Positions 1-10,270 of a DNA stretch of 64,000 bases are shown in pieces. Positions within the stretch are counted from its first letter, which is position 1. Every line of letters begins with the position of its first letter. Both the position numbers and the translations under genes were made by a program. Source of the DNA: Alphaproteobacteria bacterium (GTDB taxonomy: Bacteria > Pseudomonadota > Alphaproteobacteria > Rs-D84); contig WRCA01000002.1 of NCBI GenBank assembly GCA_009784275.1, positions 4,783 through 68,782 of the forward strand, given 5' to 3'. Under the pieces are notes generated by a model. The model ran no database searches and was not told where the DNA came from. It saw only the letters and a program-made list of their open reading frames with translations.

Positions 1-1190
1 TTTACGATCACCTGTTGCATCCAGGGCGTCCGCGCCAGCAGATGACGGCCGGTTTTATCCGGGCCTTCGACCAGGCAAGACATTGTTTTTCCAATACAGC
101 TTTCATTAAACTGGCGATTGTTTTCGGTCAGGATGTCATCCAGGATTTTTAAGCGTTGTTTTTTGACGCTTTCAGGAATCTGGTCTTTCATCAGCGCGGC
201 GGCCGTATGCGGACGGGGGCTGTATTTAAAGCTGTAGGAATTTATATATCCGATCTTTTGCGCGATATCGCAAGTCATTTCGAAATCGCTATCCGTTTCC
301 CCAGGAAAGCCGACGATAAAATCGCTGGAGATTTGAATGTCCGGTCGCACAGACCGCAGCTTATTAACAATATCTATATATAGATCCAGGTTATACGGGC
401 GATTCATTCTTGTCAATACATCAGGCGACCCGCTTTGTATAGGCATGTTTAAAAATGGCAAAAGTTTGGGCTCTGTTCCGAATAACGCAATCAAGTCATC
501 AGACATTTCAGTGGGATAGCTGGATGTGAATCTGATTCGTTTGATCGAATCAATTTTTGCCGTTTCCCGGATAAGATTTGCCAGTGAGTTTTTATATCCG
601 TTAACATTTTGCCCCAGAAAGCAAATCTCGATCGCACCATTGTCGGCGGCGTCAAGGACGTCGCGCATAACATCATCGAAGTCGCGTGATAATTCCCGGC
701 CGCGGGTGTATGGGACTATGCAATAAGTGCAGCAATGGTCACAGCCTTCTTGAATAGGAATATATGCAACCGCTGGCGATTCGGTACTGGGGGGCAGGGC
801 ATCGAATTTTTCAAGCCCGCTTAAGTCCACATTCAGCAAGCGTGCATCAGGGTTATCCAAAATTTCCGGCAACTTGTGATAGCTCTGCGGCCCCAGAACA
901 AAGTTTAATTCGGGAATCCGGCGGAAAGCATTTGCGCCTTCTTCGCGCGCGACACAGCCGACTATGCCGAACAAAGCATCAGGTTTTTTCCGATCGCGGA
1001 TACGCCCCAATTCCGAAAAGACTTTGTTGCTGGCTTTTTCGCGAACGGCGCAAGTATTAAGAATAATCAGGTCAGCCGTGGCAACGTTTTCGGTCTGTAT
1101 CAGGCCGCGCCCACACAGCATGGACACGATCCGTTGTCCGTCATAGACATTCATCTGACAACCAAAAGTTTTGATATAAAAGGTTGGCAT
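1..1190 (-). CDS. miaB: tRNA-i6A37 methylthiotransferase MiaB (radical SAM), N-terminal about 395 aa; C-terminus beyond window start
   Basis: Reverse-strand translation begins MPTFYIKTFGCQMNVYDG (MTTase N-domain), then IQEGCDHCCTYC radical-SAM Cys motif, then conserved MiaB blocks (FTSSYP, NMPIQSGS, FIVGFPGETD). Not in the ORF track because the stop lies outside the window. ATG at 1188-1190. Confidence 0.8.
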   Translation of the reverse strand, partial: MPTFYIKTFGCQMNVYDGQRIVSMLCGRGLIQTENVATADLIILNTCAVREKASNKVFSELGRIRDRKKPDALFGIVGCVAREEGANAFRRIPELNFVLGPQSYHKLPEILDNPDARLLNVDLSGLEKFDALPPSTESPAVAYIPIQEGCDHCCTYCIVPYTRGRELSRDFDDVMRDVLDAADNGAIEICFLGQNVNGYKNSLANLIRETAKIDSIKRIRFTSSYPTEMSDDLIALFGTEPKLLPFLNMPIQSGSPDVLTRMNRPYNLDLYIDIVNKLRSVRPDIQISSDFIVGFPGETDSDFEMTCDIAQKIGYINSYSFKYSPRPHTAAALMKDQIPESVKKQRLKILDDILTENNRQFNESCIGKTMSCLVEGPDKTGRHLLARTPWMQQVIV

Positions 1191-1544
1191 CTATCTGCGC
1201 CGCCCCAGTTTTTCGGCTACGAACTGGTTCAATCGCGTAACGCTGTAACTGGTATTTGCGATAGATTGTATATATCTCGAAAATCCTTCGGAAACCGCAT
1301 AAAGGCTAGAATTGGTATAAAATTTCTCGGAAAAGTCACCCCAGTGTTTTGCAAAGAACTTTTCTGGCTGATCCCTCAACAATTTAAAGTCTTCATAACT
1401 TAAATTTTGTTGGGAGTTATTACCCGAGATCCGGGAATACGGTTGTGTTTGATTGTTGCCTTTATTATTTTTCAAGGTTCCTTTTTTCTCTTGTCGTCTA
1501 ATTCTTTCCAAGGCTTTTCTTTTTTGATTTGTTGCCCTTGCCAT
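1191..1544 (-). CDS. hypothetical basic protein (117 aa), translationally coupled to miaB (TAGATG junction)
   Basis: ORF track; Lys/Arg-rich N-terminus; its stop codon abuts the miaB ATG. Confidence 0.4.
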   Translation of the reverse strand: MARATNQKRKALERIRRQEKKGTLKNNKGNNQTQPYSRISGNNSQQNLSYEDFKLLRDQPEKFFAKHWGDFSEKFYTNSSLYAVSEGFSRYIQSIANTSYSVTRLNQFVAEKLGRRR

Positions 1545-1587
1545 GTTTATTCCTTTTGGGTTGCTTCTCTCTCGCTTGTCCCTCTGG

Positions 1588-3066
1588 TTAAATTAGTTTT
1601 TCTTTCAAAATCTCATTCACCGCCGCAGGGTTGGCTTTGCCGCCAGTCGCTTTCATAACCGCGCCGACAAAGAATCCCAGCATGCCTGTCTTGCCGGACT
1701 TATATTCTGCGACCTGGGCGGCGTTTGCGGCCAAGACCTCTGCGACTGCTTTTTCAATCGCGCCGGTATCCGTGATTTGCTTCATGCCGAATCGGTCTGC
1801 GATTTCTTTCGGGTTGCCTTTTTCGCCATCTAACATCTTGATAAAGATGTCTTTTGCTTGTTTTCCATTAATCTCTGCCGCGGCAATCATGTCGACGAGT
1901 TCCGACAGGTCGGCCGGTTTCATTTCAAATTCTGGATGAGCAAACAGTTCGCTTATCATCCAATTTGCCACAGGCTTTGCGCGGGCAGGTTTGTCCCCAA
2001 CCGCGGATTCAAACCATTTGGAGACCTCGACCGATTCGGTAAGTCGCGCGGCATCATATGCATTCAGGCCCAATTCGCCCATATACCGCGCACGCTTTGC
2101 GGCCGGCAGTTCAGGCATTGTCTCTCGGATTTTTTCTATCTGATCGTCCGTAATAATTAATGGCAGTAAGTCCGGATCTGGGAAATAACGATAATCCAGC
2201 GCGTCTTCTTTCGACCGCATAACGCTGGTTGTGCCGCGATCTTGGTTAAAGCGCATCGTATCTTGGGAAACTTCGTCGCCCGATTCATAAATTTCGATTT
2301 GACGACGGGCTTCGAACTCAATTGCAGTTTTAATAAATTTAAAGCTGACCATGTTCTTGGTTTCAGTACGGGTGCGGAATCCTGTTTCGCCGACCTTACG
2401 AACCGATACATTCACATCGGCGCGCATAGAACCTTCTTCCATATTTGCATTGCTGACACCAGTTGCGCGAGCAATTTCACGAATTTGACGCAGATAGCGC
2501 TCCGCTTCGTCCGGGGAGGTTATATAGGAATTATTTTCAGGATTCTTTATATCCAGGAATGTCACGATTTCAAGTAAGCAGACACCGCTGCGGTTTAAGT
2601 CCACAAAAGTTTTATTTGGATGTTTGTCATGAAAACTTTTTCCTGCGTCTTGTTCCATATGCGCGCGTTCAATCAAGATTTTTTTCACGCTGCCGTTATC
2701 TGATTCGATTTCGAGCCATCCGCGACCGACAACTGGCGGTTCTTCTGCTGGCTGGGAAATCTGATAGCCTTGGGGCAGGTCGGGGTAAAAATACTGCTTG
2801 CGCGCAAAGATACTACGCTTGGAAATTTCTGCATTGATTGCCAAGCCAAACCGAATTGCTTGGTTTACGCATTCGCGATTAAGCGTGGGCAGCATTCCCG
2901 GCATCGCGGCATCAACAAATGAAACCTGGGTATTTGGCGCAACAGTCGGGTTATAGTCGGCAGACGCGCCGCTGAATAATTTCGAATGCGACAGAACTTC
3001 GATATGGGTTTCCAGCCCAATAACCAATTCCCAGTCACCTGTTTTGCCTTTGATTATGTATGTCAT
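1588..3066 (-). CDS. gatB: Asp-tRNA(Asn)/Glu-tRNA(Gln) amidotransferase subunit B
   Basis: 492 aa; N-terminal WELVIGLETHIEL-like block, YFYPDLPQGYQISQ, and a C-terminal GatB/YqeY-type domain. Confidence 0.93.
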   Translation of the reverse strand: MTYIIKGKTGDWELVIGLETHIEVLSHSKLFSGASADYNPTVAPNTQVSFVDAAMPGMLPTLNRECVNQAIRFGLAINAEISKRSIFARKQYFYPDLPQGYQISQPAEEPPVVGRGWLEIESDNGSVKKILIERAHMEQDAGKSFHDKHPNKTFVDLNRSGVCLLEIVTFLDIKNPENNSYITSPDEAERYLRQIREIARATGVSNANMEEGSMRADVNVSVRKVGETGFRTRTETKNMVSFKFIKTAIEFEARRQIEIYESGDEVSQDTMRFNQDRGTTSVMRSKEDALDYRYFPDPDLLPLIITDDQIEKIRETMPELPAAKRARYMGELGLNAYDAARLTESVEVSKWFESAVGDKPARAKPVANWMISELFAHPEFEMKPADLSELVDMIAAAEINGKQAKDIFIKMLDGEKGNPKEIADRFGMKQITDTGAIEKAVAEVLAANAAQVAEYKSGKTGMLGFFVGAVMKATGGKANPAAVNEILKEKLI

Positions 3067-3713
3067 TATTTCCCCGCCTTTATTTCTTTATATTTTTTCA
3101 CGATTTCCGGAATTATGCTTTCGTAAGGATAGTCGTGCCCGTTTACGCGACATTCAGCCTCTAGATATTTTATCCTGACGCCCGCCGCCGCATAGACTTT
3201 ATAGCAATCGGCATATTCTTTCGGCAAAATACAGTCGCCAATTCCCGCAACCCAGATTATAGGGGTGCCGGTGAATTTTATATCCCGCTGAATCAGGAAC
3301 GCTGGGTCTTGACCGCAAAGAGATATCACGCACTTAACAGGCTGATGCTGCAAGGCCATGCGCGCCGCTTGATCCGCGCCTTGGGAATGACCCGCGAAAA
3401 TAACATCGGACCAATCAAGATTCAGACGTTTTAATTCTTTTTTCGTTTCCTGGATTATATGCTGCGCGGATGCTGGCAGCTCTGCCAACGCTTTCTTTAT
3501 GGCTGCTGGCGTGGCTTTATAAACGCCGTTTTCAGCCACCGGGACATCATGCCACATAAATCCGCCGCGCGGCCGGCTGCCCGGATGTGGCGCGTCGATA
3601 TTCAACAAGTGCACGTCCAAGGCATTCACCAACTCCGTGCGAAATTTAGTATCACGATTATGGTCGTAACAAAATCCGGCAAGCCAAACAAGTAGCGGTT
3701 TTTTATAGGCCAT
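3066..3713 (-). CDS. alpha/beta-hydrolase, phospholipase/carboxylesterase-family esterase
   Basis: 215 aa; nucleophile elbow GHSQG (FAGHSQGADQAA) and a late His; stop overlaps the gatB start (TAATG). Confidence 0.75.
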   Translation of the reverse strand: MAYKKPLLVWLAGFCYDHNRDTKFRTELVNALDVHLLNIDAPHPGSRPRGGFMWHDVPVAENGVYKATPAAIKKALAELPASAQHIIQETKKELKRLNLDWSDVIFAGHSQGADQAARMALQHQPVKCVISLCGQDPAFLIQRDIKFTGTPIIWVAGIGDCILPKEYADCYKVYAAAGVRIKYLEAECRVNGHDYPYESIIPEIVKKYKEIKAGK

Positions 3714-3714
3714 T

Positions 3715-4296
3715 TTATTTTACCCCTCTTAAATTTTCGAAAAAGTTTTTATGCGTTGCGCCAAACCAAAGGGTTTCTTGTTTTTTGCTTTCCACGAAGG
3801 CCTGCGCAGCTTTTGCGGCCTTTTTCTGCTGAAACGGCCCAGGAAAGAAATCCGTCGATATTATCAATATCTGGAATCCGTTTAATTCTCGTAATAATCT
3901 GCACTGTTTCTTCGACACCGGGCTTTCTGCAAGCAAATCGTCGGAATGCTTATTCGCATATGCTGTTTTGATACCGGAACCTCCGATTAATATATGGAGG
4001 TCGTTCGGAAAGGCTTCATAAATTTTAAATGCTTTCAAAATTATATCTTGCCAGCCATATCCTTTAATTCCGTAATTATCTTTTTCTTTGAAGTAGTCTT
4101 TCTTACAGCCTATATGCACCGGCCGGAAATTTGCATGATCATCTTTGCTGGCCAAATGATTTAAATATTCATAAATCTTTTTTGCAAAAGCTTCATCCGC
4201 GCCACGGTCGTTCTGAACCCAAACAAGCTGTTGATCGCGGTCGCGCGCAAGTGTTGCTGCCTGTTTTAAGTCATAAAATTGTTCCAATATAAGCAT
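3715..4296 (-). CDS. hypothetical protein (193 aa), possible Rossmann-like nucleotide-binding fold (GGSG loop)
   Basis: ORF with gene-like codon usage, packed between the NUDIX and esterase genes (3-nt and 1-nt gaps); no recognisable family by eye. Confidence 0.55.
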   Translation of the reverse strand: MLILEQFYDLKQAATLARDRDQQLVWVQNDRGADEAFAKKIYEYLNHLASKDDHANFRPVHIGCKKDYFKEKDNYGIKGYGWQDIILKAFKIYEAFPNDLHILIGGSGIKTAYANKHSDDLLAESPVSKKQCRLLRELNGFQILIISTDFFPGPFQQKKAAKAAQAFVESKKQETLWFGATHKNFFENLRGVK

Positions 4297-4299
4297 GAT

Positions 4300-4923
4300 T
4301 TATTCTTTTGTCAGTCCCATTAATATTTGCTCTGCCTTTTGGCCGTATTTGTTATAGATGTCTTCGTCTCCGACGAGCGTGAAGTCTTGTCCGCCGACCG
4401 TGATGTTCTGTATCTCGCGACCATCGAATTCCAATGCTGGAATTGAACCAATAGGCTTACGGGCAAACGCGATAAATTCTTCCAGGTCTATTGCAACTAT
4501 GCTGTCCACTTCTCCGTCAGTGAATTTAAAGTCTGATAATTCCCCCGCATAAGACGCGTAATAGACATTCGCAAATACTCGATCAAGGAATGGCTTGCCA
4601 TCAGTTTTTGTAAAGTCACCAATCCATACAGTTTCATAAAGGTGTTTCGGATTATCTGCTTTAACACCGATTTCTTGTGCAATTTCACGGCGGAAAGCGT
4701 CTTCTAAACTTTCACCGGCGGAGACATGCCCGCTGGCAGTTGTATATAATTTACCTGGGTTGCTGTCCAATTTGCGGGATCGCCGCTGAAATAACAGCTT
4801 TCCGTTCCAGACCAGCCAACAATGAACAGTCTTATGCCACAGGCCCATCGCGTGCACTACATTTCTGTCCGCAGTGCCAATATGTCGACGGTTTGCGTCA
4901 TAAACATCCAGCATTTCTGTCAT
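4300..4923 (-). CDS. NUDIX hydrolase
   Basis: Nudix box GHVSAGESLEDAFRREIAQEIGV (GX5EX7REUXEEXGU). Confidence 0.85.
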   Translation of the reverse strand: MTEMLDVYDANRRHIGTADRNVVHAMGLWHKTVHCWLVWNGKLLFQRRSRKLDSNPGKLYTTASGHVSAGESLEDAFRREIAQEIGVKADNPKHLYETVWIGDFTKTDGKPFLDRVFANVYYASYAGELSDFKFTDGEVDSIVAIDLEEFIAFARKPIGSIPALEFDGREIQNITVGGQDFTLVGDEDIYNKYGQKAEQILMGLTKE

Positions 4924-5747
4924 GCAACGCTCCTTGTTTTATCCCAACCGTTGCATGCGATATCCACCATCTTACGGGCATGGAGTGTTGTGGCATCGTA
5001 TACTTTGATAGCCTTTGAATCTCGGAAATCGATAAAGCTGGGCAAGGTATACAGATATTGAAATTCTTTATTTTCATCTACCTTGCAATTTGGTGGGATC
5101 AGTTTTTTTACCTCTCCACAGCCATAAACGACCCCTTTGGCGCCAGCATGCATTAATCTGGAAACAATCCTGATAAACTCGTCCCTGGAGTTAGAATTTA
5201 TTTTTCCCAACTTTAATTCGGTTAATATGATTTTGTTCATAAGCTCTATATCTTCATCGCTGGGCACGATTACATTTACGCCCCAGGCTTTGAGCTTGTC
5301 CTTGAAAAAATCCCAAGTCATTATTTTTTTAGTAGCCAGCAAACCCACGGTTTTATTGTCGTCTTTTTTAGCGGTCTCTGCCGTGACCGTTGCGGCATTC
5401 AATACAGGAAGGCCAACTTTATATTCAACCTCGTCCGCATAGATATGCGGCAAGTTAGGGGTAAGGTTGATGAAATCTGCGCCCATGTCTTTCAACTGCT
5501 TTGCAGTATCGATTATTGTATTGCGCCATTGGTTGTCTTTAGAAAGCAAATCTGTTTGCAACCATTCGTTTACTCTGTTTTCAGGCAAATGCGCCAGTCT
5601 GTATCCCATGTTATGATTTTGGGAATATTTCGCGCTAAAGTACGTGCCAGCCAGATTCATGAACTCATCTGTTGATTTCGCAGACAACGCGCCTATGATT
5701 CCCGGGGTTAAGATTTGTGTTTCTAGAAGAGATCGCATTTTATTCAC
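4920..5747 (-). CDS. Asp/Glu/hydantoin racemase-family protein (aspartate-racemase-like)
   Basis: 275 aa; two-Cys architecture typical of the family (N-terminal ILTPGIIGALSAKST block; second catalytic-region YGCGEV); overlaps the gatA stop by 8 nt and the NUDIX start by 4 nt. Confidence 0.65.
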   Translation of the reverse strand: MNKMRSLLETQILTPGIIGALSAKSTDEFMNLAGTYFSAKYSQNHNMGYRLAHLPENRVNEWLQTDLLSKDNQWRNTIIDTAKQLKDMGADFINLTPNLPHIYADEVEYKVGLPVLNAATVTAETAKKDDNKTVGLLATKKIMTWDFFKDKLKAWGVNVIVPSDEDIELMNKIILTELKLGKINSNSRDEFIRIVSRLMHAGAKGVVYGCGEVKKLIPPNCKVDENKEFQYLYTLPSFIDFRDSKAIKVYDATTLHARKMVDIACNGWDKTRSVA

Positions 5748-7212
5748 CCATTATTGTTGTCGGCCTGTTGTCCAGGGCGGCAAAGGCTTCGATATGTTTC
5801 GCCAATTGTAGCACGCGCTTGTCATCAAATCTGCGGCCTACGGTTTGCAGTCCCAATGGCAAGCCATTCTCTGCGCGTCCTGCGGGAACACTGCATGCAG
5901 GCAATCCTGCTAGATTCATTGGAACAGCAAACAAATCCAAAGCATATGATTCCAGCGGAGTTAATTTATCTGATTGGGGGAATGCCGTACCCGCCGCCGC
6001 AGGGCAGACAATAAGATCGCATTTTTCAAATGCTGCGGAAAACGCATTGTCAATCATACGGCGAATGCGCGCGGCCTGCATAAAGTATACTTCGTACGAT
6101 TCGGATGACAGCACTGCAGTGCCAATAACCATTCGGCGCTGAACTTCTTCGCCAAATCCAGCCGCGCGGGTTTTCTTGTAAGTATCAATTAGGTCTTTAC
6201 CATCTACCCGCAAACCATATCGCATCCCATCATAACGGGCGAGGTTACTGCCGGCTTCTGCCGGCGCGATAATATAATATACTGCCAAAGCATCCAGGAT
6301 ATTTGGAATTGAAATTTCAATTATTTCCGCGCCGCCGGCTTTCAAATTTTCGATATGTTTTTCTTGTGTCGATTTCATATCAGCAGATATTTCGGCATTC
6401 TCGAATTCTTTCACGATTCCGATTTTAAGCCCGGTTAATGGAAGCGGCGTCAAGGTTTCAGTCAGCGAAGATGCGATTTCATCTGCTTGCGGTGCGCTGG
6501 TAGATTCCTTTGGATCGTGGCCGGCCATTGCGCTTAACATCAGCGCGGCGTCATCCACTGTACGCCCGACCGAACTGGGGGTATCGAGGCTGCTGGCAAA
6601 TGCGATACAACCAAACCGCGAACATATTCCATAGGTAGGCTTCATACAAACCAAGCCCGTGATAGACGCTGGAAATCGGCCGGAACCGCCGGAATCCGTG
6701 CTGGTCGCGACCAAGGCAAGTCCGCCCGCGACCGAAGACATTGTGCCGCTGGAACTTCCGCCTGGGGTTAAGCGACGCTCACGCTGATAAGGACTTATCG
6801 CCGGACCAAAATAACTTGTCGCGCCCGTCTGACCCATTGCAAATTCATCCAGATTAAGCTTGCCCAATAATACGCATCCTGCATCCGCCAGTTTTTGTGA
6901 AACTGTTGATTCATATTCTGGGATAAAATTTTCCAGCATGCGTGATGCGGCCGTAGTGCGGATTCCCTTGGTCGCAAACAAGTCTTTCATCCCAATCGGA
7001 ATTCCTTCTAGCGGACGCGCAGTGCCATTCGCATATCGCCGGTCGCTTTCCGCAGCGTCCGCCAATGCGCGCTCTGGTGTTACGGTGATATAGCAATTAA
7101 GCTCCTTTCCGAATTTTTCAATTCGGTCGAGATAAGCGCGGGTCAACTCTGTCGCGGTAATTTCTTTCGCGCGGAGTTTTTGCAGTGCTTGGGTAAGGGT
7201 AAGGTCAATCAT
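5740..7212 (-). CDS. gatA: Glu-tRNA(Gln)/Asp-tRNA(Asn) amidotransferase subunit A
   Basis: Amidase-signature GGSSSGT...; N-terminus MIDLTLTQALQKLRAKEITATEL typical of GatA. The ORF-track start at 7287 is probably an upstream in-frame extension. Confidence 0.93.
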   Translation of the reverse strand: MIDLTLTQALQKLRAKEITATELTRAYLDRIEKFGKELNCYITVTPERALADAAESDRRYANGTARPLEGIPIGMKDLFATKGIRTTAASRMLENFIPEYESTVSQKLADAGCVLLGKLNLDEFAMGQTGATSYFGPAISPYQRERRLTPGGSSSGTMSSVAGGLALVATSTDSGGSGRFPASITGLVCMKPTYGICSRFGCIAFASSLDTPSSVGRTVDDAALMLSAMAGHDPKESTSAPQADEIASSLTETLTPLPLTGLKIGIVKEFENAEISADMKSTQEKHIENLKAGGAEIIEISIPNILDALAVYYIIAPAEAGSNLARYDGMRYGLRVDGKDLIDTYKKTRAAGFGEEVQRRMVIGTAVLSSESYEVYFMQAARIRRMIDNAFSAAFEKCDLIVCPAAAGTAFPQSDKLTPLESYALDLFAVPMNLAGLPACSVPAGRAENGLPLGLQTVGRRFDDKRVLQLAKHIEAFAALDNRPTTIMGE

Positions 7213-7222
7213 GGCAAATCTT

Positions 7223-8047
7223 TTATTTCTTTTTCTTATTAGTATTGTTTGCCCGTAAGGCGTTGGTTTTAACTTTTTCAATATCAAATTTTTGTAACAG
7301 TATGTCGATTGGATTTCCTTTGAAAGCAGCCTCTTGCAAATTCATTGAAAGCATTATTGTGTCTATCATGTGATTTGGGAACGTTGCCAAAACTTTCTTT
7401 ATTTGTTCATCCGATTTGCCGGCTTTACGGGCTTCTTTAACAATACTGCTGATAGTTTCAATGACTTTTTTAGCAATTCTTTCACGTCCCCCGGCAAATG
7501 CGTTACGATACACTTCATCAAGCTTTTCATTATGAAGTTGCTGCCTTTTTGGCATCATGATTTCTTTGTGAAGAATATCCATAAAAATCATATATTTCTC
7601 ATGCACGCCAATGCGAGAGTTGAAAACCTTGCAATGAGGATTTTCAGGTGCCCAAAAAATAGATTTAATTGCTTTTTTAAATGATGTTTTCGGCATGTAA
7701 TTAGTAAACGCGTACTTCATAGCAATTAATATTGCATCGCGATGAGTGTCCAATGTTGAAAGATCCTGGCGCATCAAAATTTGTTTTACCGATTCTATAT
7801 CTCCGTTTTTAAGGAAGTCAGCAACTATTTCTTGGATAAATGGTTCAGAAGATAATTCTTTTACATGAGCCGGTGCGATGTTAATCTGCTTTATGGGCTT
7901 TGATCCTGGGATGATTGGTTTTGACCCCAAAGCTTTTCTCGCACGTTCTGCGATTTCATCGAACTGTTTCTCGTCAAATTGTGTAAGTTCGGATTTATCA
8001 ATCTTTGTAAGAGCGTCGGTATTCAAGGGCGTTACTGGAACTTTCAT
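7223..8047 (-). CDS. hypothetical protein (274 aa) with PGSKPI direct repeat and Lys-rich C-terminus
   Basis: ORF track; sits between gatC and gatA, 10 nt upstream of the gatA start; no recognisable motifs. Confidence 0.55.
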   Translation of the reverse strand: MKVPVTPLNTDALTKIDKSELTQFDEKQFDEIAERARKALGSKPIIPGSKPIKQINIAPAHVKELSSEPFIQEIVADFLKNGDIESVKQILMRQDLSTLDTHRDAILIAMKYAFTNYMPKTSFKKAIKSIFWAPENPHCKVFNSRIGVHEKYMIFMDILHKEIMMPKRQQLHNEKLDEVYRNAFAGGRERIAKKVIETISSIVKEARKAGKSDEQIKKVLATFPNHMIDTIMLSMNLQEAAFKGNPIDILLQKFDIEKVKTNALRANNTNKKKK

Positions 8048-8058
8048 TTTACATCCTT

Positions 8059-8508
8059 TTAACTTGCATCACGCAGTTTGTTCTGGGGCGATAAATCCCG
8101 CAGGGCGATTTTGAGTTTGCGTTTCGAACGCTCATGGTTTTCCATGACGGCGAATTTATATTTATCCGGGAATAAAATCGCGCCGATATTATATGCCATA
8201 ACCGGACATTTACACTCCCCAGCCAATAATTTATTAATACAGGCACTTAAAAAGAAATGGTTATTGTTAGATAGATCCATACCGCAATGAGATATTTTTA
8301 GGGAATTAAATGACGGGCTTAACTTCAAAAAATCTCCTTTGATGGAAATATCGAAATATCGCATGCAGCAGCGGGGCTTTAAAAAAGCAGGCATATTGTG
8401 CAGAATAGATGCTATTCTGACCAACCGATTAAATTGTTCATCCGTGGCAAAGTCCAATAAATAGTCGGTGTTCGAAATATCTTCAGTTTTTAAATATACT
8501 ATTTTCAT
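8059..8508 (-). CDS. hypothetical Cys-rich protein (about 150 aa; CC...HC...C...CxC pattern, possible metal-binding)
   Basis: ORF track 8059-8628 trimmed to the internal MKIVYL start, preceded by a purine-rich RBS 25 nt after the gatC stop. Confidence 0.45.
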   Translation of the reverse strand: MKIVYLKTEDISNTDYLLDFATDEQFNRLVRIASILHNMPAFLKPRCCMRYFDISIKGDFLKLSPSFNSLKISHCGMDLSNNNHFFLSACINKLLAGECKCPVMAYNIGAILFPDKYKFAVMENHERSKRKLKIALRDLSPQNKLRDAS

Positions 8509-8533
8509 TTTACGCTCTTTGAGGTTGCCTCTC

Positions 8534-8827
8534 TCACTCGTCAATGACTTTCGGCACGGCGAAATATCCACGGCTTTTGCCCGCGTCATCCGGGATGTTC
8601 GCCAGCACCGCATCACGCATATTCCCATCCGTTACCACATCTTCGCGCAGGGGCAGGGCATGTTCCACCGGCGTCAGCATCGGCCGAACACCCTTTGTAT
8701 CTATTTTTTGCAATTTATCAATCCAATCTATGATTGAATCAACTTTCATCTCTGCAAGTTTTTCATCCTCGATTTCTATCCTGATAAGATGGGCGAATTT
8801 TTGAAGCTGTGCTTTTGTGAATGACAT
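8534..8827 (-). CDS. gatC: Glu-tRNA(Gln) amidotransferase subunit C
   Basis: 97 aa; a C-terminal conserved GatC-like block (...VPKVIDE). Confidence 0.85.
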   Translation of the reverse strand: MSFTKAQLQKFAHLIRIEIEDEKLAEMKVDSIIDWIDKLQKIDTKGVRPMLTPVEHALPLREDVVTDGNMRDAVLANIPDDAGKSRGYFAVPKVIDE

Positions 8828-8876
8828 TGTTGCGTTCCATGTTTGCTATTTGCGGAATTATGGCTATAATCATACT

Positions 8877-9317
8877 ATGATATTGCCAGAATTCAAGGAT
8901 TTTGTAGCGTCTTTGCCGTCCCATGGGGGGCGCCTTTTGGGCATAGATTGGGGGTCAAAGCGGATGGGGCTGGCTGTATCCGACGACCTGCAGGATTTCG
9001 CATTCCCGCGCGCAAATATATTAAGCAAAGATGTTATGGAGCAGATTGTTGAAATCGTTGTTGCCGAAAAAATTGTTGGCATTATCCTGGGCTTGCCGAC
9101 GCACGAAGACGGAACCGATTCGGATACCACGCGGCAAGTGCGGAACTTCGCTGAAAAATTGGCGGTAACAGTGGCAACGCCAATAGGATTCATCGACGAA
9201 AAATTCACCAGCTGGGAAGCGAACGAAAGGAACCCCCGCGCAAAACTTCTTGATAAACATGCGGCTGCGATAATACTTCAAGATGCTATTTCCATGATTA
9301 AAAAGGTAAAGCGATGA
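8877..9317 (+). CDS. ruvX: Holliday-junction-resolvase-like RuvX/YqgF (pre-16S rRNA nuclease)
   Basis: LLGIDWGSKRMGLAVSD N-terminal RNase-H-like motif; start taken at MILPEF. Confidence 0.8.
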   Translation: MILPEFKDFVASLPSHGGRLLGIDWGSKRMGLAVSDDLQDFAFPRANILSKDVMEQIVEIVVAEKIVGIILGLPTHEDGTDSDTTRQVRNFAEKLAVTVATPIGFIDEKFTSWEANERNPRAKLLDKHAAAIILQDAISMIKKVKR

Positions 9318-10270
9318 GTAAAGAAAAGATTGATTTATTGGTTCGGAAGATCACAGCCGCAAAGTCCATTCTGATTTTTGGGCATAAAAATCCTGATGGC
9401 GACTCGTTGGCCTCTGTATTGGGATTGCGTCATTTAATCGCTGACAATTTCGGCAAGACCGCTGACATCATTTATGATGGAAATTTACCGATAAGCTATG
9501 ATTTCTTACCCGGGCGCATGGATTTTGTATATGCCGAAAAATTGCCGGACAAGAAATACGATTTGGTTATTATTTCGGATACCGGCTCCTTTGTTCAGCT
9601 AGATTCGATGCAGCAAAAATTCTTTGATTCCGCGACGAATACAATAAAAATCGACCATCATAAGACTATGGATCTTTTGGCGGATGTCGATATTGTCGAT
9701 ACCGATGCTTCATCCGTGTGCGAAATAATTTATGAGATCGCCCATGCTGCAAAATGGAAGATCAATGCTGATGCCGCTACGTGCCTTTACTCTGGGATTT
9801 ATACCGACGCCCAGGGATTTTCTTTTATAGATGACAGCAAGCCCCTGTTAATTGCAGCGGCTTTGGTCGATTTGGGCGCCAAGCCTCGCAGTATTTCCGA
9901 AGGATTGAAAGTTGCAACACGCGGCGACATAATGGCCCAGGCAGAGGTTTTGGCAGACGCGGAGTTCTTTTATAACGGACAGTTGGCTGTGGCAAGTATT
10001 CCAAAGGCGCTTTATAAAAATCTAGATTCGGGTGAGACGGAAATCGTCTTGTTCCTGCGTCGAATCAGGGGCGTGGAATGTATCGCCATTTTAAAGGAAG
10101 CACATCCGGAAGAAATCAGGGTTTCTTTGCGGTCGGGAAAAATCTCGGTCAGGGAAATTGCAGAAAGCTTTGGCGGTGGTGGACATGACTTGTCTGCTGG
10201 TATGAAAATTTTTGCCAATTTGCCGAAAGCGAAAAAAATAATCGTCGAATCTTTCAAGGGGATTTTATAA
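9314..10270 (+). CDS. nrnA: DHH/DHHA1 phosphoesterase (NrnA-like oligoribonuclease / pAp phosphatase)
   Basis: GHKNPDGDS, DHH (IDHHKT) and C-terminal GGGGH DHHA1 motifs. Confidence 0.8.
   Translation: MSKEKIDLLVRKITAAKSILIFGHKNPDGDSLASVLGLRHLIADNFGKTADIIYDGNLPISYDFLPGRMDFVYAEKLPDKKYDLVIISDTGSFVQLDSMQQKFFDSATNTIKIDHHKTMDLLADVDIVDTDASSVCEIIYEIAHAAKWKINADAATCLYSGIYTDAQGFSFIDDSKPLLIAAALVDLGAKPRSISEGLKVATRGDIMAQAEVLADAEFFYNGQLAVASIPKALYKNLDSGETEIVLFLRRIRGVECIAILKEAHPEEIRVSLRSGKISVREIAESFGGGGHDLSAGMKIFANLPKAKKIIVESFKGIL

Follow-up and report, generated by a model that had tools for sequence, protein, structure and literature searches.

A lineage-variable gene slot between gatA and gatB in a termite-gut alphaproteobacterium of the order Rs-D84

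Background

Unrelated genes lodged within gatCAB, the operon of the tRNA-dependent amidotransferase, have already been described in alphaproteobacteria. In Caulobacter, Brevundimonas and Phenylobacterium variable genes designated X, Y and Z lie between gatA and gatB; the inserts, one or two in number, vary even among closely related genomes, some of which lack them, and for Caulobacter K31 it has been reported that gatA and gatB use different promoters (Ash et al. 2014, PMC4221894). The uncultured order Rs-D84, which includes 'Candidatus Enterousia', consists of bacteria with reduced genomes, mostly <1 Mb (PMC12306168). In this work we have analyzed the gatCAB locus of a termite-gut relative of 'Ca. 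Enterousia' from the same order, located on contig WRCA01000002.1. The analyzed stretch of DNA, referred to here as the window, is 64 kb long (1-64000). Four genes stand between gatA and gatB of this locus and code for a protein of the aspartate/glutamate racemase family (further called racemase-like), a Nudix hydrolase, an orphan protein of 193 amino acids (aa) and an alpha/beta-hydrolase esterase.

The window resembles Caulobacter K31 and its relatives in that genes unrelated to the amidotransferase occupy the gatA|gatB junction of an alphaproteobacterial gatCAB operon (PMC4221894). It differs in the number of inserts (four), in their identity, in the lack of intergenic space between them and in the presence of a second variable slot at the gatC|gatA junction. 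Because the inserts are packed without intergenic space, a single transcript is likely here. With the gut genomes of 'Ca. Enterousia' and other Rs-D84 members the window shares the order-level lineage (gatB 74-78% identical), the flanking synteny (divergent ruvX and DHH-family genes upstream) and a cysteine-rich protein family encoded between gatC and gatA. It departs from the Enterousia loci in the gatA-gatB slot itself, where these have a gene for tRNA-Phe and, except for two loci, no protein genes. Thus lineage-specific interruption of gatCAB is known, and what is new are the inserts, members of known superfamilies and one orphan.

A preliminary description of the locus had proposed that the four genes are foreign enzymes co-expressed with the amidotransferase, conceivably as a metabolite-repair or small-molecule-modification module tied to Gln/Asn-tRNA synthesis. 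We present evidence that the slot is probably a lineage-specific variable one, shaped by ordinary operon accretion and turnover, and not the seat of a four-enzyme pathway.

Results

Contents of the gatA-gatB slot in relatives

The relatives were gathered by a genome scan anchored on gatB, with gatC, gatA and gatB located and the gaps between them measured in each locus (loci are numbered with the prefix L). The nearest relatives are uncultured gut bacteria represented by metagenome-assembled genomes (MAGs), several of which bear the name of termite-gut bins, with gatB identities to the window of 89% for L012 (isolate Nt197P3bin125), 84% for L013 and 82% for L074. Next in identity (gatB 72-78%) come some 60 MAGs of the 'Candidatus Enterousia' type, which derive from the rumen and from the guts of horses, chickens and humans. 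The gatA gene is 79% identical to that of the nearest relative, and gatC 74-82% to those of the nearest relatives. The neighbour-joining tree of GatA and GatB grouped the pair formed by the window and L012 with the pair L013 and L074, as the sister of the Enterousia clade; deeper branches led to L073 and L041, with Rhodospirillales and Acetobacter as the outgroup.

Among close relatives the slot upstream of gatB took at least seven different forms, and in the subclade of the window itself the slot never contains a tRNA gene but, where filled, forward-strand protein genes whose set differs by lineage. The order in the window, racemase-like - Nudix - 193-aa - esterase, is not repeated at any other locus, and no other locus has all four inserts together. 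In the nearest relative, L012, a Ser-hydrolase gene (PF06821) takes the position of the racemase-like gene and is followed by Nudix (76% identical) and esterase (79%) genes with nothing between them, so that neither the racemase-like nor the 193-aa gene of the window is present. L093 has Nudix (72%), CutA1 and esterase (74%) genes before gatB, whereas L013 has genes for a 106-aa protein without assignment, a Ser-hydrolase-like protein and CutA1. In L005 the C-terminus of a Ser-hydrolase and CutA1 precede a homologue of the 193-aa protein (58%). L092 encodes the esterase (81%), an S-adenosylmethionine (SAM) methyltransferase and a 168-aa protein without assignment in front of gatB, with a divergent gene upstream. 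The slot of L041 holds a single 165-aa Nudix gene with the same MTEM-DV N-terminus, and that of L074 is empty, the gatA stop and the gatB start being separated by 1 nucleotide (nt). Of the four inserts of the window, only Nudix and esterase recur upstream of gatB. CAYJAG010000028.1, the contig of L074, bears the label 'uncultured Muribaculaceae bacterium', but its gat genes share 73-82% identity with the alphaproteobacterial ones of the window; the contig has probably been mis-binned.

The comparison of gat operons in related genomes, proposed with the preliminary description as a check, has therefore returned lineage-specific neighbours in changing combinations, essentially the outcome that was said to speak against a four-gene module tied to Gln/Asn-tRNA synthesis. 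The statement that gatA and gatB are normally adjacent agrees with the gaps of 3-42 nt measured in Rhodospirillales, in Acetobacter and in the deep termite MAGs L073 and L076.

In the sister clade the junction is split in another way. All 60 Enterousia-type loci in which both genes are present have an antisense tRNA-Phe(GAA) gene between gatA and gatB; the gap is 138-667 nt and the 76-nt tRNA-Phe gene lies about 55 nt before gatB (L014-L080, e.g. L016:8869-8944). Since the tRNA gene is antisense, translational coupling of gatA and gatB is not possible in this clade, and the split in the sister clade implies that it is old and that gatB can function uncoupled from gatA. No remnant of tRNA-Phe was found in the window, and ARAGORN detected no tRNA gene anywhere in its 64 kb. 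The two Enterousia-type loci with a protein gene in the slot, L061 (877-1401) and L072 (8340-8858), have an extra open reading frame (ORF) for 172-174 aa, without assignment, between gatA and the antisense tRNA-Phe gene. Inserts in the gatA-gatB junction were also seen farther away in the alphaproteobacteria, in Micavibrio-like and related MAGs: L084 (7726-8965) and L086 (7759-8960) encode two homologous Cys-containing proteins of about 190-230 aa, apparently secreted and with no Pfam match, and L085 encodes a GIY-YIG domain protein.

Organization of the locus

The locus comprises nine ORFs, all on the minus strand, between 1588 and 8827, with gatA, the four inserts and gatB in the order given in the preliminary description. 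The first gene of the operon is gatC (8534-8827, 97 aa; PF02686, E 3e-14), and gatA (5740-7212, 490 aa; PF01425, E 9e-126; ATG 7212 is also the start in public gene calls) and gatB (1588-3066, 492 aa; PF02934, E 5e-103, and PF02637, E 8e-41) follow at a distance. The matches of GatC, GatA (amidase) and GatB (GatB_N and YqeY-like) are all far over the cut-offs. The three genes are not contiguous: 1324 nt with two ORFs separate gatC from gatA, and 2676 nt with four ORFs separate gatA from gatB. The operon is thus interrupted at both junctions, since ORF149 (8059-8508, 149 aa) and ORF274 (7223-8047, 274 aa) lie between gatC and gatA. The presence of the racemase-like (4920-5738, 272 aa), Nudix (4300-4923, 207 aa), 193-aa (3715-4296) and esterase (3066-3713, 215 aa) genes between gatA and gatB, as previously described, is borne out by the sequence and by domain matches. 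ORF274 is present as a called gene on public contigs, and metagenome contigs as well as an NCBI MAG with locus tags FWE50_ carry the same proteins.

From ORF149 to gatB the genes are co-oriented with spacers of 0-11 nt, and from gatA to gatB all junctions fall between -4 and +3 nt when the racemase-like gene is started at ATG 5738. Four of the junctions previously reported could be reproduced: racemase-like and Nudix genes overlap by 4 nt (ATGA), Nudix and 193-aa genes are 3 nt apart, 193-aa and esterase genes 1 nt apart, and the esterase stop overlaps the gatB start by 1 nt (TAATG). The fifth, an overlap of 8 nt at the gatA/racemase-like junction, was not upheld. It requires a start at GTG 5747, whereas ATG 5738, which leaves a 1-nt gap after the gatA stop, is most likely the true start, since public gene calls begin the 272-aa protein there and since it reproduces the junction that follows gatA in relatives: the sequence ...GGGG(G/T)GAATAAAATG after gatA is followed by gatB in L074 and by the Nudix gene in L041.

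The arrangement stop, one base, start (TAA-A-ATG) recurs on the minus strand at 5736-5742 (gatA/racemase-like), 3711-3717 (193-aa/esterase) and 8045-8051 (ORF149/ORF274), and relatives use the same junction for different downstream genes. Several downstream genes begin with ATGAC, which provides a TGA stop for the upstream gene in the +1 frame.

Compactness and expression signals

Tight junctions, defined by a downstream start lying -12 to +20 nt from the upstream stop, occur in 24 of the 47 same-strand adjacent gene pairs of the window, and in 17 of 40 outside the gat run. The gat run is the longest series of consecutive tight junctions in the window (n=7). Tight junctions as such are not special to the gat cluster and are the norm in this compact genome.

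A sigma-70-like site (8896->8869) was found about 40 nt upstream of gatC, in an intergenic region that is divergent; promoter-like sites in the region are no commoner than expected by chance. Within the operon region the counts of internal promoters and terminators were at or below shuffle expectation, and Rfam families of note were not found in 1000-9500. Shine-Dalgarno-like sequences were read before the Nudix gene (AAGGAG), the esterase gene (AGAGGGG) and gatB (AAGGCGGGG). The compact same-strand arrangement noted earlier is thus confirmed, and because of this layout and the lack of any internal terminator or promoter signal above chance, co-transcription of the inserts with gatCAB appears likely.

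The gatC-gatA slot

The gatC-gatA gap is variable too, with lengths of 5 to 2055 nt in the loci compared. In many Rs-D84 genomes it holds one to four tandem copies of a gene for a Cys-rich protein of about 140 aa (e.g. L058:6577-7389). A hidden Markov model (HMM) was built from 33 ORFs of the 39-member family, taken from the gatC-gatA gaps of Enterousia-type loci, and ORF149 matched it (hmmsearch E 2e-9), with the C-terminal motif G-x-C-K...LFP-x-KYK. By this profile ORF149 is a member of the clade-specific Cys-rich family that occupies the gatC-gatA slot. Neither ORF149 nor ORF274 had a match in Pfam, NCBIfam, PADLOC or PHROG. Their G+C contents (GC) are 0.378 and 0.366, respectively, while the remainder of the window has 0.466±0.018.

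Nudix and esterase genes

The Nudix protein scored 49.9 bits against PF00293 (E 4e-13; cut-off 21.1) and is a member of that family. Its Nudix box, G-HVSAG-E-SLEDAFR-REIAQEIGV, follows the consensus GX5EX7REUXEEXGU and is intact but for Gln replacing the first Glu of the EE pair. It belongs to the YfcD/IDI-like branch: the closest characterized proteins, whose match covers the Nudix box and the N-terminal half around it, are YfcD of E. coli (2fkb, E 7e-8) and isopentenyl diphosphate (IPP) isomerase, IDI (E ~1e-5). The window protein stays far below the equivalog cut-offs for type-1 IPP isomerase/YfcD (PRK03759, 54.5 vs 127; PRK15393, 47.8 vs 152), has about 55 aa extra at the C-terminus in comparison with these enzymes, and reads Ser (TASGH) at the position of the catalytic Cys of IDI. 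Orthologues are encoded upstream of gatB in L012 and L093, and the Nudix protein of L041 is a more distant relative (31-37%).

Matches of the esterase to the alpha/beta-hydrolase families PF00561 and PF02230 are sub-threshold (Pfam score 17.5 vs 23), and precomputed PF02230 matches exist for four of the eight homologues. The family counts only eight members among 5.8 billion proteins. In all eight the nucleophile elbow GHSxG (G108-H-S110-Q-G112), D160 and H193 are invariant, which gives a complete catalytic triad; with its length of about 210 aa, this elbow and the invariant Asp and His, the protein resembles the acyl-protein-thioesterase-like hydrolases of the phospholipase/carboxylesterase family PF02230. 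The gene lies directly upstream of gatB in L012 and L093, while in L092 the methyltransferase and 168-aa genes intervene. Members of the family are also found away from gat genes, beside a 2-hydroxyacid dehydrogenase gene (L010) and beside the gene for pyruvate:ferredoxin oxidoreductase, PFOR (L094).

Between the window and L012 the ratio of nonsynonymous to synonymous substitution rates (dN/dS) was 0.089 for Nudix, 0.096 for esterase, 0.081 for gatA and 0.096 for gatC, with dS saturated in all of them. The ratios point to purifying selection on the Nudix and esterase genes as strong as that on gatA. The GC of both (0.454 and 0.488) matches the window background. The two genes are old, constrained residents of the slot, and the proteins probably act in general house-cleaning or as lipid/ester hydrolases.

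It may be asked whether these two proteins are a cooperating pair kept by gatB for the sake of expression, the other genes being incidental. One could imagine, for example, that the esterase de-esterifies a substrate and the Nudix enzyme cleaves its nucleotide-diphosphate part, or the reverse. The window, L012 and L093 each carry both genes upstream of gatB, in L012 they are adjacent with a 4-nt overlap, and dN/dS is about 0.09 for both. They are split, however, by the 193-aa gene in the window and by CutA1 in L093; Nudix stands alone in L041, the esterase gene lacks an adjacent Nudix gene in L092, L010 and L094, and co-occurrence in three closely related lineages may mean shared ancestry only. 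We regard such a partnership as unlikely, and retain turnover in a variable slot as the probable explanation for these two genes as well.

Racemase-like and 193-aa genes

The racemase-like protein belongs to its family by both profiles (TIGR00035, 118 bits vs 93.1; PF01177, E 1e-17, 64.6 bits vs 31), and its best PDB match is 3ojc (E 2e-25). The gene identities proposed in the preliminary description are supported by these matches as well as by the Nudix profile and the esterase triad. With the Asp/Glu racemases, such as those of Pyrococcus (1jfl) and E. coli (YgeA, 5hqt), the protein shares whole-length homology over the NCBIfam cut-off, the Cys of the GCxE motif, and the Asn and His that are invariant in the first motif. 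The first catalytic position, which is Cys in the Pyrococcus type and Thr in the YgeA type, is taken by Pro94, an assignment that is gap-free and fixed by the invariant residues G86-A-D-F-I90, N95 and H98. The second catalytic residue, Cys207, is kept and is followed by a 23-aa insertion, and GGM of the known enzymes is changed to GAL. The protein has neither the Cys/Cys nor the Thr/Cys pair of a two-base racemase, and with Pro at the catalytic position such a mechanism is unlikely; it is probably no longer a working two-base racemase. In a set of 5.8 billion proteins the closest homologue other than itself has 29-34% identity, and the protein is unique to this population.

The 193-aa protein has no Pfam or NCBIfam match. 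Among the same 5.8 billion proteins its family has two other members only (58% and 53% identity), and a profile search of a 1.84-billion-protein representative library added none. A scan of metagenome contigs with a protein pattern, or with a degenerate DNA pattern for DLHILIGxSGIK, found no further member. The one candidate raised by the profile search, P0004, was rejected as a repeat-protein artefact matched in 11 short stretches. The three members share 71 invariant positions, including DLHILIG-x-SGIK, and are encoded in three contexts: the slot of the window, beside CutA1 (L005), and a third, unrelated one (L006).

The profile and structure comparisons proposed earlier for this protein gave a resemblance to RpiB/LacAB that is weak and sub-threshold (PF02502, E 0.041, 14.3 bits vs 24.7; PDB 6mu0, E 0.018) and two low-confidence AlphaFold models, with predicted local distance difference test (pLDDT) scores of 51 and 48, too poor for a test of the fold. 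The similarity extends over about 70-90 residues (ILI-G-x-SGI...ANK vs ILICGTGVG...ANK), and the alternating beta/alpha secondary structure of the models is compatible with it. The Cys of the RpiB motif ICGTG is the catalytic base; in the three 193-aa members its column is Gly, Ser or Gln, unlike in RpiB, and the N-terminal Asp-His motif of RpiB is absent. An RpiB sequence for a comparison profile was sought in the DNA of the relatives and none was found. The possibility that the 193-aa protein is a degenerate copy of the neighbouring esterase was discarded (hhalign probability 1.2%).

Both genes are AT-richer than the window: GC is 0.422 for the racemase-like gene, 2.4 standard deviations (SD) below the window mean and with the lowest codon-usage score of the operon, and 0.400 for the 193-aa gene, 3.7 SD below the mean. 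Neither has an orthologue in any relative. The low GC fits recent acquisition or relaxed constraint, and the two genes are recent, lineage-restricted additions. The term "foreign", applied before to all four inserts, can be kept for these compositionally deviant two and does not suit the Nudix and esterase genes.

Discussion

Accretion of genes into a variable slot and their turnover offer the probable account of the locus. The gatA|gatB junction of the termite-gut Rs-D84 lineage, and the gatC|gatA junction alike, would have become a slot in which small, promoterless, mostly hydrolase-type genes accumulate, get swapped and get lost. The inserts would "hitchhike" on an essential operon by using its promoter, and would be translated through the stop/start-abutting junctions typical of this compact genome. 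We infer that the region is most likely one long compact transcription unit, gatC through gatB, whose single transcript would start at a promoter upstream of gatC and whose genes would be translationally coupled, each being translated from its own Shine-Dalgarno-like site in the end of the preceding gene. The functions of the inserted genes would be unconnected with each other and with the amidotransferase, and turnover could proceed by deletion together with homologous recombination in the conserved gatA and gatB sequences on either side.

Several observations weigh against this account. The single mRNA and the translational coupling are read from the spacing of genes only. The Nudix and esterase genes stand together in three lineages and are strongly constrained, and there may be some functional link between them or with gatB expression. 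The genes shared among loci keep the order Ser-hydrolase, Nudix, CutA1, 193-aa, esterase, which could mean that a larger ancestral array has undergone differential loss; an ancestral joint function would then be conceivable. Moreover, the 193-aa and racemase-like proteins have no assigned function. A single collinear ancestral array changed by loss only was considered and rejected: the methyltransferase and 168-aa genes between esterase and gatB in L092 mean that gains must also occur.

It is very unlikely, in our opinion, that the inserts form a block of mobile-element origin, either an integron-like cassette array or an islet, perhaps placed at tRNA-Phe. The genes are indeed promoterless, co-oriented and variable, two of them are AT-rich, tRNA genes are classical integration sites, and the Enterousia-type loci all have tRNA-Phe in this slot. 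Nevertheless no integrase-like ORF, transposase, attC-like site or flanking repeat was found in the operon (1000-9500), the intergenic space of 0-3 nt leaves no room for recombination sites, the window retains no trace of the tRNA gene, and the Nudix and esterase genes have the composition of the window. PADLOC and PHROG scans for anti-phage or prophage cargo gave only generic Nudix and racemase-domain matches.

An equally slight probability is given to a slot that holds a clade-specific toolkit, composed of Nudix, esterase, CutA1, Ser-hydrolase, 193-aa and one-base racemase-like proteins, for damage control of aminoacyl-tRNA or of amino acids and nucleotides. Its members would act on a shared substrate class, the 193-aa protein would represent a new RpiB-like family with different chemistry, and the genes would be kept under the gat promoter. 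The least probable is the dedicated four-enzyme metabolite-repair or small-molecule module co-expressed with the amidotransferase, for which speak the same-strand junctions of -4 to +3 nt, the recurrence under purifying selection of Nudix and esterase upstream of gatB in three lineages and the enzyme-like or nucleotide/sugar-phosphate-binding-like folds of all four proteins, but against which stand the lack of any relative with all four genes (two are missing in the nearest one), the pairing of 193-aa and esterase families with other genes elsewhere (CutA1; 2-hydroxyacid dehydrogenase or PFOR), the slot that is empty in L074 and the outgroups and filled by a tRNA gene in Enterousia, the Pro at the catalytic position of the racemase-like protein, and tight junctions that are the genomic norm.

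Conclusions

That stop/start junctions are tight inside an essential operon is not in itself a sign of a pathway, least of all where the genome is compact, and the apparent module falls apart once a few relatives are compared. The locus, read as a slot of ordinary accretion and turnover, illustrates clearly how genes turn over at a fixed position in the reduced-genome gut symbionts of the order Rs-D84, and the 193-aa orphan and the racemase-like protein could serve as examples of recent gene birth or neofunctionalization.

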